This document shows, in pieces, positions 540 to 27,478 of a stretch of DNA of 32,091 nucleotides. How positions within the stretch are numbered: position 1 is the stretch's first letter; every line of letters begins with the position of its first letter. The translations under genes and the position numbers were made by a program. Source of the DNA: a virus (Duplodnaviria; Heunggongvirae; Uroviricota; Caudoviricetes); the IMG/VR virus record IMGVR_UViG_2609459797_000004, positions 1 through 32,091 of that record; one strand, written 5' to 3'. A model generated the notes under the pieces. It saw only the letters and a list, made by a program, of their open reading frames with translations. It did no database searches and was not told the origin of the DNA.

Positions 540-2708
540 TTATTGTTGCCCTGCTTGTTGCTCTGTGGGCAAAGAATCGTTATTACTGAGAAAAGCGACA
601 ATACCAACGCGGGCTAGATTTTTCTTCTCGTCCGCTGATAGCGTATTTACCCAATCCCTATATGGTTTCACTTTCTGCATTGAAGCATCCACCGATTTCC
701 TAGAGGCTGGGGTGCTGGCGTGACCTGCGGCAATCCTTTTTGAGAGATTTTTAAAAGCCGGAGATGCTATTAATTCATCAGCGGCAGCCATTCTTGAGTT
801 TTTACCAGAACGGAGGAGGCTAAAGAGTCCCCCTGCCGTACCGGCTCCAGGCGCTCCGATGGCTGTGGTTAGCCCTTCTGCTTTAGCCACGTCTTTTCCT
901 ATTCCATATATACGCCCAAGCATTCCCTTTTCTCCTGCGAACTGATTCATCATCCGGTCAATTTGAGAGGAGGAATACACCTTCTCGCTGCCCACCCTTT
1001 GCATGCCAGAAGCCACCTCATAGATGTTTCTCAACCTACGCGTAGCCGGATAGCCAATTGCCCGGCTCAATGCCTGCATATTTGATTTGTTTCTTGATAG
1101 CCCTCCATACCACTTAACAAATCCAGGAACACCAAGTGACTGCCCGGGAGATTTAGCGAACGTAGTGAAAGCCCTATTCATTGCGGTGGCAACAGCTGGT
1201 TGCACCATGTCATCAGGAAGATTTGAAACTAGGCGACGGAAGTCACCGCCCTTTCCTTGAGACATATCGACGATAGCTTGCTGTAATTGCGGCACTATTC
1301 CTTTATCCAAGTCTCTGCCAAGATTTTGAACAGCGGCTGCCTGTACTGCGAATCTCTTTCTCCCGATCTCTCTAGCTAAATTCCATGTATCCTCTGCACC
1401 ATATTTGGCAGCAGCGGCTCCCTGATCTTGTATCAGTGCGCTTTCAATAATTCCAAGGTGCCGAGCGTCGATGCCGCTATATGGCCCTTTATCCATCTCT
1501 TTGCCAAGAGCCCTTCCAACCTGCCGTCGAACTGCATCAAGAAGACCATAAGTCGGGGCGGTGTTTGGGTCTATTTGTTCCAAGGTCTTTGACAGTTGAG
1601 GATATAGCGATTTTAGTTTTTCTAGCCCACCGACATCATCTGCAATATCCTCAATGGCGTTAGTGGTATGGGTGGTATCTACGGTAGCTCTTGTTGGAAT
1701 TTTTGCTCTAATTTGATTGTATAGAGTGTCTTCTTGGCGCTTCAGGTTTGATCTTAACTCCTCATAAGAGCTTTTTACCTTTTGATTGATAAAGTCCTTA
1801 TCAACACTCCCACCAAAATCATTAATAAATTTATCTGCCTGCTCTCCAAGCCTACTAATGGCCTCTCGCTGTGCGTGGAACAGTTTATTCCCTGGGGTTG
1901 CAGCTAAAGCATTTTCAAACGCGCGGTAAGAAGGGTTTCTGGAGTACATGCCGGGAGTTAAGGCATCCTCCATCCCAAGATTGCGGGCGGCCTGTAGCAC
2001 AGAATCATCTGGTGAAACGGCTTTCGCGAGAGCATTTAAACCAGATCTGTTTCCTGTTATTGGATTCACATCTGTAGCTTTCGTTGCAACCCTCGCCATT
2101 CCACTAAGTTCAGATGCCTGAGACATTTCTGCCGATGGAGGCCTAAACCTCTTCGTAACCGCACTGGCTGCTTTACTAATCACTGGAGATGCCAATTCAG
2201 CAATTGGACCAGCGGCAGCACCTATAGCCGCCCCTGTAGTTACATTGCCACCGGTTCCGTTAGCAACAACACCACCTTCAACCGCACCAAGCCCTGCGGC
2301 GGCAGCCAGCCTTGCCGCCCCTTTCGGAACCTGAGAAATAATCCCACCACCACTAACAAATGGCGCTGCTTGTCCAACAAACTCACCAACATCTTGTGCG
2401 GTTGATGGTTTTGCCGCTAACTTCTGCTGTAGAGACTGAATTGCGGCTTGCTCTTCTGGTGTCATATCCTGAAACAGGCCAACACCTTTACCAACATCCA
2501 TCAATCCACTGAGAACGCCATACATAAAACGGTCGAAACCGTTAGCATTATTAACAACATTTTCCTGTCTGGAATTTTCCTCTGGTGAAACCAAAGGAGA
2601 TTGCTGCTGTTCTGGTTGGGAATCAAGCACAAAGCCATCAGGAAGTTGTGAGTTATCAGGCTGTTCATCCAGAACAAACCCCTCTGGTAAACCTACATTG
2701 GTTGCCAT
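540..2708 (-). CDS. Internal virion/ejection protein, P22 gp16-like (722 aa)
   Basis: Last and largest of three consecutive ejection-protein-sized ORFs downstream of the tail needle, with a Gly/Ala-rich central segment. Assigned by size and position in the P22-like gene order; homology not verified. Confidence 0.55.
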
Positions 2709-4042
2709 TGTCCGTTCCTGTAAATAATTTTCTGACCAGTTTTAGGATTTTTCGCGGTCATACCTTCTCGAAATGTTTGACCGCCAGATGTTGCTTGTTG
2801 TGTCTGTTGTTGCGCAGGCTGCTGAATATCTTCATACAGCTTGGCTTTTCTGGATTGCAATTGCTTAGTTAGTCCGCTGGGGAGAGAATCTCCATAAGTT
2901 GAAAGATAATCATCCATTTGCTGGTTAAACTTTTCGCCTTCAGTATTTGCCATCAGTTTTGAGGTGTTGATTAAGTCTTGGACTTGCTCATTATTCAGCA
3001 TCTTGCCGTTAGATAATTGGCTAACATAGTTACCAAGTGTGCCAAATATTCCATCAGTGCGTTTTACCTGCACTTGCTCACCTTCGCGTACCACAGATTG
3101 CGGATCCAGCGATTTCATATAGTTGAAAATCATTCCCAACTGCGCGGCTGGAGTGTTGCGCTTCCCAAGGGCTTGTAGGTTGTCAGAAGCACTGCGCATT
3201 GCAGAATAATTCTTTGAGAACCCATTAATATCACTATTCAGATCTCGAACAAGTTTTGGGTCAATCTTTCCGCTTTCCTGTTGTTTCATCCCTAATTCCT
3301 GCAACTTCAGGGCTACGTTATCATTATGCATTTGTGCCCGCTGAGCCCTGTCTAGTTGAGCGTTTTGGATATTTGCCCATCCTCTCGCGTTCTCCATGTC
3401 AGCCTGACGGATGCTTTCATCCAATCGCCCCTTCTCAAGTTGGCGACCAACCATCTTATCCTGATAATCCAGCATTTTATCCGGACCAACAGCCCCTAGC
3501 GTCATAGTAGTCAGCATGTGTGATAGCTGCTCTGGATTCTGAATACCTGTCTGAATCATCCAGTCAGCATTCGCCCCCACGCGATTTAACCTGTCCTTGT
3601 TGTCAGTAATGAATTTACTGTAGGCTTCCGGTCCCTGAGAAAGAGCGACGTTAGCCCTCATGGCTAAATCGCCCATATCGTTGCGTTGCTGATCATTAAG
3701 ACCGGAAAACGCCTGTTGTGCCTGTGCAACAAACGCTGGATTTTCCTGGGCAAACTTAAATAGTCCAGATGGATCACCAGAAGCCCATGCATCAGCGTGA
3801 ACCTTATTGAACGCACTAATAGCTTTCTGTTGCTGTTCCTGATTGTAAATATCAGCAACTCCAGCCAGACCACGTAACGCGGTCAGGCCAACGTTATTTG
3901 CACCTGAGCGAGCCAGTTCATTGTTTTCGCGGATCAGACCAAGCGTTGCGTTAATGTCGCTTGCCTTTGGTGCATTCTCATTTTGCGTACCAATGCCAGC
4001 CAGAAAACCACCAGAATTAATACCCTGTTGCCACGTAGCCAT
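2693..4042 (-). CDS. Ejection protein, P22 gp20-like (449 aa)
   Basis: Position between the gp7-like and gp16-like ORFs; Q/N-rich protein of the expected size. Confidence 0.5.
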
Positions 4043-22202: not shown

Positions 22203-22499
22203 TCAGAATTGCATATCAATTTGCTCAGAATCCTCGGTGGCAGCCGGGGATTTTTTCTTTGTGATTCCATCCAATGCATACTTAAAAGCCCTGCTAATCG
22301 GACTGATGTCTGATGCCATTCCGAAAGCACACAAGACCGAAGCAATAAATCTCCAGTCCGTTCTGCTTATCTTCGATTCATGACAGCCAATCATCTTTGC
22401 CAGACCGCGCTGGGTAAGCGTTGACAGGTTGATGAGTAAATCAGTTTCAGCGCGATCAATTTCTCGCTGTGTTGGCTTGCTATAACTTGCTTGTGTCAT
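22203..22499 (-). CDS. cII: CII-like transcriptional activator (98 aa)
   Basis: C-terminus KKKSPAATEDSEQIDMQF matches lambda CII C-terminus KKRPAATERSEQIQMEF; same size and position after cro/nutR. Confidence 0.7.
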   Translation of the reverse strand: MTQASYSKPTQREIDRAETDLLINLSTLTQRGLAKMIGCHESKISRTDWRFIASVLCAFGMASDISPISRAFKYALDGITKKKSPAATEDSEQIDMQF

Positions 22500-22636: not shown

Positions 22637-22837
22637 TTATGCAGTTGTTTTTTTGTTACTTGGGAAGGGCTTTATTTCTTCCGCATAAACGCTTCCATCA
22701 GCGTTTATAGTTAAAAAAATCTTTCGGCCTGCATGAATGGCCTTGTTAATCGCGCTTTGATATACGCCGAGATCTTTAGCCGTCTTGGTTTGCCCAAAGC
22801 GTATTGCATAATCTTTCAGGGTTATGCGTTGTTCCAT
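22637..22837 (-). CDS. cro: Cro repressor, lambda type (66 aa)
   Basis: [66 protein letters not shown] differs from remembered lambda Cro at two positions. Confidence 0.92.
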
Positions 22838-22934: not shown

Positions 22935-23651
<717 letters not shown>

Positions 23652-23682
23652 TTGTTTTATTTTTCACGTAATAGGATGATTT

Positions 23683-24024
23683 ATGACACAATTTCAACTT
23701 GCATTAATCGCTAGAGAAGTTGATGGAGAAGTCATCCATCTTCGCACCAAAGACGGATACATCAATGCCACCGCGATGTGCAAGTCTGCGGGGAAGCTAC
23801 TTGCTGACTATACACGACTAAAAACAACACAAGATTTTTTTGATGAATTATCACGCGATATGGGGATTCCCATATCGGAGTTAATTCAATCATTTAAAGG
23901 CGGAAGAGCAGAGAATCAAGGGACTTGGGTTCATCCAGACATCGCAATTAATTTAGCTCAGTGGCTATCTCCAAAATTTGCAGTGCAAGTATCGAGATGG
24001 GTGCGTGAGTGGATGTCAGGTTAA
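23683..24024 (+). CDS. KilA-N (APSES-like) domain protein, 113 aa, at the rex position
   Basis: AGGATGA ribosome-binding site; signature GYINATAMCKSAGK...DYTRLKTTQDF...GTWVHPDIAINLAQWLSPKF typical of KilA-N domains; co-oriented with cI. Confidence 0.7.
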   Translation: MTQFQLALIAREVDGEVIHLRTKDGYINATAMCKSAGKLLADYTRLKTTQDFFDELSRDMGIPISELIQSFKGGRAENQGTWVHPDIAINLAQWLSPKFAVQVSRWVREWMSG

Positions 24025-24063
24025 AGAGCGCCTGCCGAACTCCCTATCCACCTTAAGCGGTAT

Positions 24064-24442
24064 ATGACAAACCGAGGCAGAGTTCCTCATACGCACTTTT
24101 CTATGCTTAATGAACTGACGTTTAACTTGGTTGCGCCACTTGAACAGGCCGGATATACGCTGCCAGAAAAAATGGTCCCTGATATTTCAGAGGGTAGGGT
24201 TTTCTCGCAATGGCTCCGTGACAACCGGGGGGTTGAGCCGAAGACATTCCCAACATATAACCATGAGTACCCAGATGGCCGGACATTCCCGGTACGTCTA
24301 TACCCAAACGAATATTGCAGATTTCAAACAATACTTCAACGAAGTGTGGCTGCCTCAGTACGCTCCTAAATATTTTGCTGAACGAGACCAAAGGGCATTG
24401 ACGTTGATTGAGAAAATCATGCTACCTGACCTTGATTCCTAA
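24064..24442 (+). pseudogene. Interrupted coding region downstream of the KilA-N ORF (same frame to 24369, +1 frame to 24442)
   Basis: Frame-1 ORF 24064..24369 is separated from the KilA-N ORF by a single TAA. The protein-like C-terminal stretch that runs to the terminator is in the +1 frame (track ORF 24131..24442). May be a decayed gene or separate genes. Confidence 0.4.
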
Positions 24443-24450
24443 ATGTTATT

Positions 24451-24477
24451 CCCGGCCACAGAGCCGGGTTTTCTTTG
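24451..24477 (+). terminator. Intrinsic terminator after the cI-operon cargo
   Basis: CCCGGC-CACAGA-GCCGGG hairpin followed by TTTTCTTTG, 9 nt after the 24442 stop. Confidence 0.6.
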
Positions 24478-24628
24478 CCTCACGATCCCCCTCACCCAAG
24501 AACACATAACCAATTGTATCTATTTGAAAATAAATAGATACAACTCACTAAACATAGCAGTTCAGATCTCTCACCTACCAAACAATGCACCCCTGCAAAA
24601 AATAAATTCATATAAAAAACATACAGAT

Positions 24629-24690
24629 AACCATCTGCGGTGATGAATTATCTCTAGCGGTGTTGACATAAATACCACTGGCGGTGATAC
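24629..24690 (+). promoter_or_regulatory. Left operator OL3-OL2-OL1 with PL promoter, lambda type
   Basis: AACCATCTGCGGTGATG (OL3), TATCTCTAGCGGTGTTG (OL2), TACCACTGGCGGTGATA (OL1); -35 TTGACA at 24663..24668 and -10 GATACT at 24685..24690, directed toward the N gene. Confidence 0.8.
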
Positions 24691-24759
24691 TAAACACATC
24701 AGCAGGACGCACTACTCACCAGGGCGGTGAATATACAACGATTCGAATATGAATCTACG

Positions 24760-25035: not shown

Positions 25036-25419
25036 ATGACACGCAGAACTCAGTTCAAAGGCAATTCACGTTCTCGTCGTCGTGAGCGTTTAAAGGCAAA
25101 GGCATTAGCTAACGGCGTACTGGCCCGCGAAGAAGCAATAAGTTCAGAAGTATTACACCGCCCTACTCTAAGCAGAGCGCAGATTCAGGCTAAAGGTACT
25201 CACGAAACGCCTGAGCGCAAAGAAGACGCTAAGCCAATTAAGTTCATGGCACAGGACGTGATCTGGCAACAGAAAGAATACAGACGCAATCTGGAGCGAG
25301 CGGCCATTGTGTACGCGAATGAGTTTGGACATAAGCAACCAGAAACTGGTGTATGTCTTCCAAACGTAGCCATTTACGCGGCAGGCTACCGGAAATCAAA
25401 ACAACTGACAGCGAGGTAA
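25036..25419 (+). CDS. N-type transcription antiterminator, P22 gene 24-like (127 aa)
   Basis: N-terminal arginine-rich motif (RSRRRERLKAKALA); C-terminus CLPNVAIYAAGYRKSKQLTAR matches the remembered P22 gp24 C-terminus; GGAGG ribosome-binding site. Confidence 0.75.
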   Translation: MTRRTQFKGNSRSRRRERLKAKALANGVLAREEAISSEVLHRPTLSRAQIQAKGTHETPERKEDAKPIKFMAQDVIWQQKEYRRNLERAAIVYANEFGHKQPETGVCLPNVAIYAAGYRKSKQLTAR

Positions 25420-25422
25420 GTG

Positions 25423-25647
25423 ATGAATCAGACATACATTCCATCATGCTTGAGAAATCTGCCAAAGCAGAAAGCAAAGCCCCGCAAGCAAGCCATAAAG
25501 GACGCTAAGGCAGAGGTTATTGATCAAGCAATACAATTGCTCAGGGAGGAGTTAAGAAGTGGCAAGCTCGAAGGAATGATGATTCCCTATCAGCGCGGAT
25601 ATCTATCGGCGATTAGTAAGTTGGAAGTATTGAAGAGTGAATTATGA
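25423..25647 (+). CDS. Hypothetical early protein (74 aa)
   Basis: ATG 4 nt after the N stop; basic and helical; track ORF starts at the GTG at 25420. Confidence 0.4.
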   Translation: MNQTYIPSCLRNLPKQKAKPRKQAIKDAKAEVIDQAIQLLREELRSGKLEGMMIPYQRGYLSAISKLEVLKSEL

Positions 25648-26336
25648 ACTATCTGGAATTTCCGGATGGTTCATTGTTTTGGCAGCAAACCACTTATTTG
25701 AGAGGAATTAATATGTCATCAATCCGCTTAACTACGAGAATGAAAGAGGAAATCGCTCGTAACGCTTTAATTAAGTCTGGGGTTTTCACTGAACTTGAAG
25801 AAGTAACAAAGTTAAAGAACCAGCTTGCACTTGACGCCAGAGTTATTGCGTTTGGCGGTAAAAAGAAAACTGAGGAAGTGGATCAGTTATCATCCAAGTT
25901 GGTAGCTATAAGTGAAGAACTTGGAAAGATGGGATGTTCATTTTACTCATACGATGTTCGTTCTACTTCAATTTATCTGACTGTATCTGGCAGAAGGGTT
26001 GGATGGCTTTCATATGGGAAAGACGGCAACGGCGAAGATATATTGCTCCCTGCTCCGAACGAAGATAAATGCATGTTTAGCGCAGAACACGAAATAACAA
26101 AAAGGTTTGATGAAATCTGCGCATTGCAACAAAAACTTGAAGCCAAGAAAAAGGATATCGAATCAAATGTATGGGCTGCTTTGAACTCAGTCACAACAGT
26201 TAAGCGACTTATTGAGGTTTGGCCTGAAAGCAAAGAATTGCTACCAAAAGAAGCAGATAAAGCAAGTACAGCACTTCCTGCTTTACGGGTAGAAGATTTG
26301 AATAAGATGATTGGACTTCCTTCCGAGGCCGCATAG
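25644..26336 (+). CDS. Hypothetical early protein (230 aa), function unknown
   Basis: Start overlaps the upstream stop (ATGA); an alternative internal start MSSIRL at 25713 has a GAGG ribosome-binding site; ends inside a terminator hairpin. Confidence 0.45.
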   Translation: MNYLEFPDGSLFWQQTTYLRGINMSSIRLTTRMKEEIARNALIKSGVFTELEEVTKLKNQLALDARVIAFGGKKKTEEVDQLSSKLVAISEELGKMGCSFYSYDVRSTSIYLTVSGRRVGWLSYGKDGNGEDILLPAPNEDKCMFSAEHEITKRFDEICALQQKLEAKKKDIESNVWAALNSVTTVKRLIEVWPESKELLPKEADKASTALPALRVEDLNKMIGLPSEAA

Positions 26337-26350: not shown

Positions 26351-26468
26351 TGGCATAAACAACATAATAAACACAGCACTGTGTATTCATTCCAACGAGT
26401 GAATACACGGAGCAATGTCGCTCGTAATTAAACAGGAGCAGACTTGTTCTGATTGTTGGAAATCTTCT

Positions 26469-26497
26469 TTGCCCTCCAGTGTGAGGGCAATTTTTTT
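26469..26497 (+). terminator. Intrinsic terminator immediately upstream of the next gene's ribosome-binding site
   Basis: TTGCCCTC-CAGTGT-GAGGGCAA hairpin followed by TTTTTTT; GGAGG ribosome-binding site begins 4 nt later. Confidence 0.55.
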
Positions 26498-26509
26498 GAC
26501 GGAGGATAT

Positions 26510-27478
26510 ATGAGTGAAGTAACAGATTTAGTTGTTATTGAAAAAGCAAATGCAATGACTGTATTTCAGTCTGCCGACCAGATTGAAGAAATCCTTCAAA
26601 AGGTTGAACGTGAAGTTATGTCCTTTGTGCCTGATATCACAACGGCAAAGGGCAGAAAGGAGATCGCTTCTCTGGCGTATAAAGTTGCGCAGACGAAAAC
26701 ATATCTCGATGGTCTTGGCAAAGACCTTGTGGCTGAACTGAAGGAAATTCCAAAGCTAATTGATGCCAACCGCAAGACAGTGCGTGATCGCCTTGATGAG
26801 CTGAAAGCCAAGGCGCGCCAGCCTCTTACTGATTATGAGGAAGAACAGGCGCGGATTAAAGCCGAAGAAGAAGCTAAGGCAGCAGCTGAAGCTCTCGCAA
26901 AGCAAATTGAGTCTGACCATGAAATAGCGATTTTGATGGATCGCGAATTTGACCGCCAAAGAGAAGAGGCAAGACTCAAAGCGGAGCAGGAAAAGCGAGA
27001 GCATGAAGAACGCTTAAAAAGAGAAGCTGAAGAGAAAGCCAGATCTGAAGCCGAAGCAAAGGCAAAAGCCGAAATTGAAGCAGCAGCAAGGCGAGAAGCA
27101 GAAGCTAAGGCCGCAGCGGAACGTGCAGAGCGTGAACGCATTGAAGCCGAGCAACGAGCACAGCGCGAAGAAAAAGAGGCAGCAGAACGAGCTGAAAGAG
27201 AAAAGCAGGCGGCAATTGAAGCAGAACGCAGAAAAGCACAGGAGGAGGCTGAACGAATCCGTCGCGAGGCTGAAGCAAAAGAGCAAGCCAGAATAGCAGA
27301 AGAAAAAAGAATCAAGGACGAAGAAGAGCGTAGAGCAAAGGATAAAGCTCACCGGAAAGAAGTAAATAACAAAATACTTGCTGACCTTATCAAGGTTGGC
27401 GCATCAGAAGATGTTGCTAAAAATATCATAACAGCCATCGTAAAAGGCGAAGTATTCGCAACAAAAATAACCTACTAA
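26510..27478 (+). CDS. Charged coiled-coil protein with TolA-like E/A/K/R-rich repeat region (about 322 aa)
   Basis: ATG at 26510 after a GGAGG ribosome-binding site; long central stretch of EAKA/ERAE-type repeats; track ORF starts at the upstream TTG at 26453. Confidence 0.5.
   Translation: MSEVTDLVVIEKANAMTVFQSADQIEEILQKVEREVMSFVPDITTAKGRKEIASLAYKVAQTKTYLDGLGKDLVAELKEIPKLIDANRKTVRDRLDELKAKARQPLTDYEEEQARIKAEEEAKAAAEALAKQIESDHEIAILMDREFDRQREEARLKAEQEKREHEERLKREAEEKARSEAEAKAKAEIEAAARREAEAKAAAERAERERIEAEQRAQREEKEAAERAEREKQAAIEAERRKAQEEAERIRREAEAKEQARIAEEKRIKDEEERRAKDKAHRKEVNNKILADLIKVGASEDVAKNIITAIVKGEVFATKITY

Follow-up and report, generated by a model that had tools for sequence, protein, structure and literature searches.

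A probable BstA-family gene at the rexAB position of a lambda-type immunity region, interrupted by a premature stop codon and a frameshift

The viral sequence analyzed here, IMG/VR record IMGVR_UViG_2609459797_000004 (Caudoviricetes; its whole stretch of 32,091 nucleotides (nt) is called the window below), contains a lambda-type immunity region in which the cI repressor gene is followed, in the same orientation, by a locus at positions 23683 to 24442. We consider it probable that this locus is a single BstA-family gene that sits in the slot occupied by rexAB in lambda and is doubly inactivated in the window. An earlier inspection of this DNA (the original prediction) had noticed a 113-amino acid (aa) open reading frame (ORF) with a KilA-N signature and more coding sequence behind it, and had proposed either a candidate BstA-like defense locus or a distinct two-part system. 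The window copy is a decayed member of the known BstA family, not a new two-gene system.

The two-part arrangement is the product of a nonsense mutation and a frameshift in a single gene. A megablast search found the same DNA in 22 complete Escherichia coli genomes and in phage PhiR5_2, and in E. coli D5 and PhiR5_2 it is annotated as one 762-nt gene encoding a 253-aa “KilA-N domain-containing protein.” The window is 99.3% identical in DNA to this intact D5/PhiR5_2 allele over the gene, with four differences (Table 1). When positions 23683-24444 are translated in a single frame, the KilA-N domain is followed by an in-frame TAA, about 97 sensible codons, and then degenerate sequence, and the sensible C-terminal ending (…LPQYAPKYFAERDQRALTLIEKIMLPDLDS) is found in another frame. 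A separate partner gene is ruled out: the ORFs at 24064-24369 and 24131-24442 are two frames of one ancestral reading frame, and what had been taken for a possible second component is the remainder of the same gene behind the stop and the 2-bp deletion. The C-terminal remnant (24315..24442) is labeled “BstA_C (weak)” in public contigs. Suppression of the stop codon by a phage tRNA was also considered, and no tRNA genes were found in the window.

Profile comparisons place the intact allele in the BstA family. The 253-aa protein matches PHROG 6287 (“BstA abortive infection system, replication inhibitor”) over its full length (E = 1.8e-82; the BstA protein of Salmonella prophage BTP1 scores 2.1e-150 on this profile), and the PADLOC BstA model matches its residues 120-237 (E = 2.5e-20). 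In direct comparisons with BTP1 BstA, BLASTP aligned the intact protein over 133 residues of the C-terminal domain at 29% identity (E = 5e-15), and hhalign aligned a profile built from 29 homologues with a probability of 97.8% (E = 6.8e-13; columns 48-240 against residues 66-280). A search of a large protein collection recovered 2748 relatives spread over the Proteobacteria; among the relatives listed, most are about 250 aa long, and the full-length ones carry both PF04383 (KilA-N) and PF26567 (BstA_C). The name BstA_C is taken from these precomputed annotations of homologues; our own Pfam scan of the intact protein (E <= 10) and of the C-terminal pieces returned KilA-N with no C-terminal match, and an NCBIfam scan gave no match.

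The three pieces left in the window lie colinearly on the BstA profiles. For the 113-aa ORF, Pfam KilA-N scores 95.8 bits (cutoff, 23.8; E = 1.7e-27) across residues 13-112, well above any chance level. This ORF covers positions 6-121 of PHROG 6287, the middle remnant covers positions 154-253 (E = 1.3e-33; PADLOC BstA, E = 3.2e-13), and the tail remnant matches positions 237-272 of the PADLOC BstA model (E = 8e-4). The KilA-N(-like) N-terminal domain that characterizes the family is therefore present, and the window DNA also encodes a C-terminal domain of BstA_C type, a homologue of the one in BTP1 BstA. The D5 and PhiR5_2 allele forms the uninterrupted two-domain polypeptide of about 250-310 aa found in the family, and the window copy does not. 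The window also has the family layout, in which the gene lies directly downstream of a prophage repressor, is co-oriented with it, and has its own terminator; placement directly after the repressor is strikingly conserved in the BstA family (PMC8585504).

Of the described systems, BstA is the closest, and BstA of BTP1, BstA-Ec, and BstA-Kp (Owen et al. 2021, PMC8585504) have the same KilA-N-type plus BstA_C plan as the intact allele. BTP1 BstA and the ancestral protein fall into the same PHROG and the same PADLOC model, and BTP1 bstA occupies the same site directly after the repressor, in the same orientation and with its own terminator. The ancestral protein is shorter (253 aa versus 307 aa for BTP1 BstA), and BLAST gives no alignment between its N-terminal domain, a canonical Pfam KilA-N, and the “KilA-N-like” domain of BTP1. 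The window gene descends from a divergent, shorter BstA subfamily with a 253-aa product and a canonical KilA-N domain. The window copy, unlike BTP1 bstA, carries a stop codon and a frameshift, and aba-like direct repeats are not visible in it. KilA-N domains also occur in other phage proteins such as P1 KilA and the Ant/Bro-type antirepressors, which have KilAC or ANT C-terminal domains, whereas here the C-terminal domain is BstA_C and no RING/p28 is present. The eukaryotic APSES factors Mbp1 and Bqt4 are likewise of KilA-N type, with a C-terminal part that differs from BstA_C. An antirepressor of the Ant/Bro/KilAC type is ruled out, since the Pfam scan gives KilA-N alone on the 253-aa allele and the C-terminal part is BstA_C.

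The lambda-type immunity region (+ strand) lies within a window whose remainder is a P22/Sf6/HK620-like mosaic. Its cI protein is identical to lambda cI at 232 of 236 positions (98%). The hairpin ending the cI operon (−12 kcal/mol, z = −1.8) begins 8 nt past the gene's final TAA (24440-24442). In lambda, this same element lies after rexB, and it is labeled “terminator” in the immunity-region records of HK542 and HK244. No terminator-like site was found on the + strand ahead of 24451. From the terminator to OL/PL, the DNA shows about 94% column identity to the lambda region downstream of rexB. Because the 98%-identical cI and the terminator and OL/PL flanks match lambda, the locus is an exact replacement of lambda rexA-rexB: the rexA-rexB DNA is wholly replaced, and only cI, the terminator, and the OL/PL flanks align. 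RexAB occupies the identical slot, but the proteins are unrelated and lambda has two genes in place of one. No RexA or RexB homologues were found downstream of cI, where the Pfam, PHROG, and PADLOC matches are to KilA-N and BstA only. The bstA-family locus is presumably co-transcribed with the upstream cI, and the intact gene, like RexAB, would be expected to provide an abortive-infection function expressed in the lysogen.

Much of the original prediction is borne out by these results. The KilA-N signature of the 113-aa ORF, its good ribosome-binding site (RBS) behind cI (a 31-nt spacer with AGGA), the rexAB position, and the further coding sequence running on to a strong terminator are all confirmed, and the BstA-family homology, which had been left unverified, emerges from profile searches of the 113-aa and full-length products, where KilA-N and BstA similarity were both found.

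Table 1. Coordinates of the bstA-family locus, its differences from the intact allele, and the neighboring elements of the immunity region
Position	Strand	Feature	Details
22637-22837	-	cro
22938..23651	+	cI repressor (lambda type)	237 aa; Pfam HTH_3 + Peptidase_S24
23652..23682	+	Spacer from cI to the gene, 31 nt	RBS AGGA at 23673-23676, 6 nt before ATG
23683..24442	+	Decayed bstA-family gene (pseudogene of a 762-nt, 253-codon gene)	DNA alignment with intact alleles L002 and L003
23683..24024	+	Sole intact ORF, 113 aa	KilA-N / APSES-type DNA-binding domain only
23691		A for G	Synonymous (+9 of gene)
24022..24024	+	Premature stop TAA	G→T at 24022; GAA (Glu114) in intact alleles; interdomain linker
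24025..24314/24315	+	Untranslated remnant, first two thirds of BstA_C, original frame	PHROG and PADLOC matches
24314..24315	+	2-bp deletion (TC or CT versus intact GAATATCTTGCA)	Frameshift at about codon 212
24315..24442	+	BstA_C C-terminal remnant, different frame	PADLOC match; ends at original stop codon
24332		C→T	His→Tyr
24451..24478	+	Intrinsic terminator ending the cI operon	GC-rich hairpin, stem 24451-24468, then TTTTCTTT (T-run)
24663-24691		PL-like promoter
25036-25419		N

The position of the stop codon defines what can still be made from the window copy. An AlphaFold2 model of a close homologue (P0001, 86% identical to the intact allele; mean predicted local distance difference test score, pLDDT, of 90.2; predicted template modeling score of 0.55) consists of two domains joined by a lower-confidence linker at residues 111-120, where the pLDDT dips to 69. 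Codon 114 falls within this linker, and the 113-aa product is therefore the complete N-terminal domain alone. Judged from the sequence, a lysogen can make at most this 113-aa KilA-N fragment and no BstA_C domain. Because BstA_C would be absent from any product, BstA-type defense has most likely been lost in the window copy. The proposal of a candidate BstA-like defense locus stands with respect to family and position, but the window copy cannot yield BstA_C joined to KilA-N and is therefore doubtful as a working defense locus.

In our favored interpretation, the rexAB site of a lambda-immunity module carried on a P22/Sf6-like E. coli phage contains a gene with an N-terminal KilA-N and a C-terminal BstA_C domain, which in its intact form would be expressed in the lysogen from a transcript shared with cI. 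As inferred from BTP1 (PMC8585504), the intact protein would localize to replicating foreign phage DNA and block its replication, and the infected cell would die without releasing progeny. On induction, the carrier phage may be spared by aba, a short stretch of DNA overlapping the start of the gene itself, again as in BTP1. The window copy is inactivated twice, by the change of Glu114 to a stop in the linker and by the 2-bp deletion at about codon 212. These results show that a BstA-type defense gene formerly occupied the rexAB position of this immunity module and that an allele common in public data, where it is labeled only “KilA-N domain-containing protein,” is a decayed copy. Knowing this helps annotation as well as censuses of defense systems, in which the locus might otherwise be overlooked or scored as an active system.

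The broken allele is not an artifact, and it is frequent. The window haplotype is identical in 17 sequences, counting the window and 16 others from NCBI, ENA, and IMG/VR. Ten of these are long NCBI and ENA contigs picked by an exact match to the 113-aa protein, in which the gene region is identical to the window over all 760 bp and the flanking genes differ; the RefSeq genome EC2641 and five IMG/VR contigs have the same haplotype. RefSeq annotates the 113-aa product as WP_227164514.1 (two genomes examined). The exact 113-aa protein was found in at least 1000 contigs (1970 index blocks), compared with 924 contigs for the intact protein. In a scan of IMG/VR that was independent of the allele, codon 114 was TAA at 8 of 28 loci and GAA at the other 20, and about 5 of the 22 complete E. 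coli genomes with the gene carry the broken form, a count partly inferred from identity classes. Further decay of the window haplotype, with added indels and substitutions, was seen in three loci (L041, L043, and L005), and other truncated products of the same gene on record have 69, 81, 93, 144, 175, 176, and 239 aa.

Six of the 10 contexts examined (L007, L009, L012, L014, L015, and L016) are degraded remnants of prophages, all of one kind: each has a 55-aa fragment of N fused next to RecT, a 154-aa integrase fragment, and, where upstream genes were called, DnaB fragments. This recurrence points to a cryptic prophage that became fixed in a widespread E. coli lineage. Hitchhiking, both with such a prophage and with the lambda immunity module, can therefore account for much of the broken allele's abundance. 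An inactivated allele at least as frequent as the intact one is also in line with the view that abortive-infection genes impose a cost on prophages.

The stop at codon 114 is not confined to the window haplotype. The same TAA occurs on a second haplotype (GGC TAA versus GGT TAA) in E. coli H5, E. coli H6, and one IMG/VR contig, and in this haplotype (L006, which is E. coli H6, at 2561-3322, and L035) the gene lies behind an XRE-type repressor and lacks the 2-bp deletion. In Klebsiella, pairs of 113-aa and 113-aa proteins were found, and these pairs suggest the same split there. Compared with its nearest intact relative (L030), the H6 haplotype differs at five sites, all in a 75-bp cluster at gene positions 340-414, and at four of the five it has the window-type base. 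Because the differences between H6 and L030 are clustered in this way, a short tract of recombination that brought in the stop would be a better fit than a second, independent mutation.

The window copy keeps the 5′ region in which BTP1 carries aba. In BTP1, aba is a 63-bp DNA element extending from −29 to +34 of bstA, 3′ truncations of bstA keep self-immunity, and aba elements are homologue-specific, with no known consensus (PMC8585504). The corresponding region here consists of the 31-nt spacer and the first ~34 nt of the gene. Among alleles, the stretch from −32 to +45 is nearly invariant, and within it a single difference, G→A at +9 (23691), separates the window from the intact allele. No terminal direct repeats of the CCCGCC type were found around the start codon. 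A perfect 7-nt inverted repeat (TCAACTT…AAGTTGA, 23694-23700 and 23717-23723) is present within the first 41 nt of the gene, where part of the aba element is located in BTP1.

A separate observation concerns the upstream junction. In alleles that lie behind different repressors, the spacer and the final ~25 nt of the repressor gene (…TFG stop) are conserved although the repressor genes otherwise differ, as seen by comparing window positions 23625-23682 with L006, L030, L037, and L045. This conserved stretch resembles a joint at which recombination transfers the gene from one immunity type to another.

Several observations weigh against a single, doubly inactivated BstA-family gene as the full account. 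The intact allele is only 29% identical to BTP1 BstA, and in the C-terminal domain alone, compared with 42-48% for the experimentally tested BstA homologues (PMC8585504), and no experimental tests of the short 253-aa subfamily were found in the literature searched, which likewise held no mechanistic papers on BstA later than Owen et al. 2021. The truncated allele is no rarer than the intact one, the same TAA recurs behind the different repressor of E. coli H6, and the stop leaves the whole KilA-N domain intact; these three points make it conceivable that the fragment or the DNA has kept a function.

The high frequency of the broken allele raises the question of antidote-only remnants, and the alternative that survives best, possible if doubtful, is that the locus is an antidote without its poison. 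The protein function would have been lost and the 5′ end would still be aba-like, so that the carrier replicates in cells with a cognate intact BstA and the locus is a relic of counter-defense. The location of aba at the 5′ end in BTP1 and the self-immunity of 3′ bstA truncations (PMC8585504) are consistent with this, as are the retention of the 5′ region in the window with a single change at +9, its strong conservation across alleles, and the abundance of the broken allele alongside its cognate intact form within one species. However, aba is undefined for this subfamily and CCCGCC-like terminal direct repeats are absent, and the change at +9 could itself inactivate the element, as single-base changes abolish aba in BTP1. 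Coding and RBS constraints and a very recent origin of the allele would also be expected to keep the 5′ end conserved. A more active version, to which we give a slightly lower chance, would make the broken allele a cheater or counter-defense form that has shed the costly protein and kept the aba-like DNA, perhaps with the KilA-N fragment interfering with intact BstA. If this were true, carriers could replicate in, and be induced from, hosts armed with a cognate intact BstA.

Rather improbable, in our judgment, is that the 113-aa KilA-N fragment is itself the selected product, acting as a DNA-binding regulator or as a dominant-negative inhibitor of the intact BstA of co-resident prophages. The stop lies exactly in the predicted linker and preserves a complete domain, the good RBS is kept and the ORF stays inside the cI operon, the same stop is found on the second E. 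coli haplotype (H6) and, by protein pairs, in Klebsiella, and the allele is very common. On the other hand, other natural truncations (69, 81, and 93 aa) cut inside the domain, the prevalence of one degraded remnant among the contexts means that hitchhiking can account for the abundance, and the single 75-bp cluster of differences in H6 fits recombinational transfer better than repeated selection.

A working split system, with the KilA-N and BstA_C halves cooperating as two polypeptides, is very improbable. In E. coli H6, and apparently in Klebsiella too, the C-terminal half remains an open frame beyond the TAA, with its own annotation as a 113-aa protein, but in the window the 2-bp deletion puts this half out of frame and makes a complete BstA_C impossible, the ATG at 24064 has no convincing RBS, and nearly all of the best-scoring homologues listed are single two-domain polypeptides of about 250 aa. 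That the gene is really intact and the lesions are sequencing or assembly errors is scarcely credible: frameshifts near short repeats can arise in this way and the relative in strain 81 has extra indels typical of a noisy assembly, but both lesions recur base for base in 16 independently obtained sequences, and RefSeq holds the 113-aa product as a protein record of its own.

Relative to these alternatives, the reading as a single decayed BstA-family gene remains the one we prefer, and the surroundings of the locus add some minor observations. Both cI and cro are of lambda type, but a mosaic boundary lies just to the right of cro, where cII differs between the type shared by the window and EC2641 (98 aa, WP_000189607.1; window 22203-22499, − strand) and the D5 type (97 aa, lambda CII family; L002 1626-1919). 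No Rfam families were found between 22400 and 25200. Directly after N, a 230-aa gene on the + strand (25644-26336) encodes an Nmad5 domain (nucleotide modification associated domain 5, PF18757, E = 2.5e-71), and a DNA-modification or anti-restriction function in the early-left operon is possible for it. An ORF at 26453-27478 (+ strand) encodes a 341-aa product with a high content of Glu, Ala, Lys, and Arg and a long repeat region that resembles a coiled coil, and it gave no Pfam match; related prophages label its counterpart “TolA” or “coiled-coil domain-containing.”
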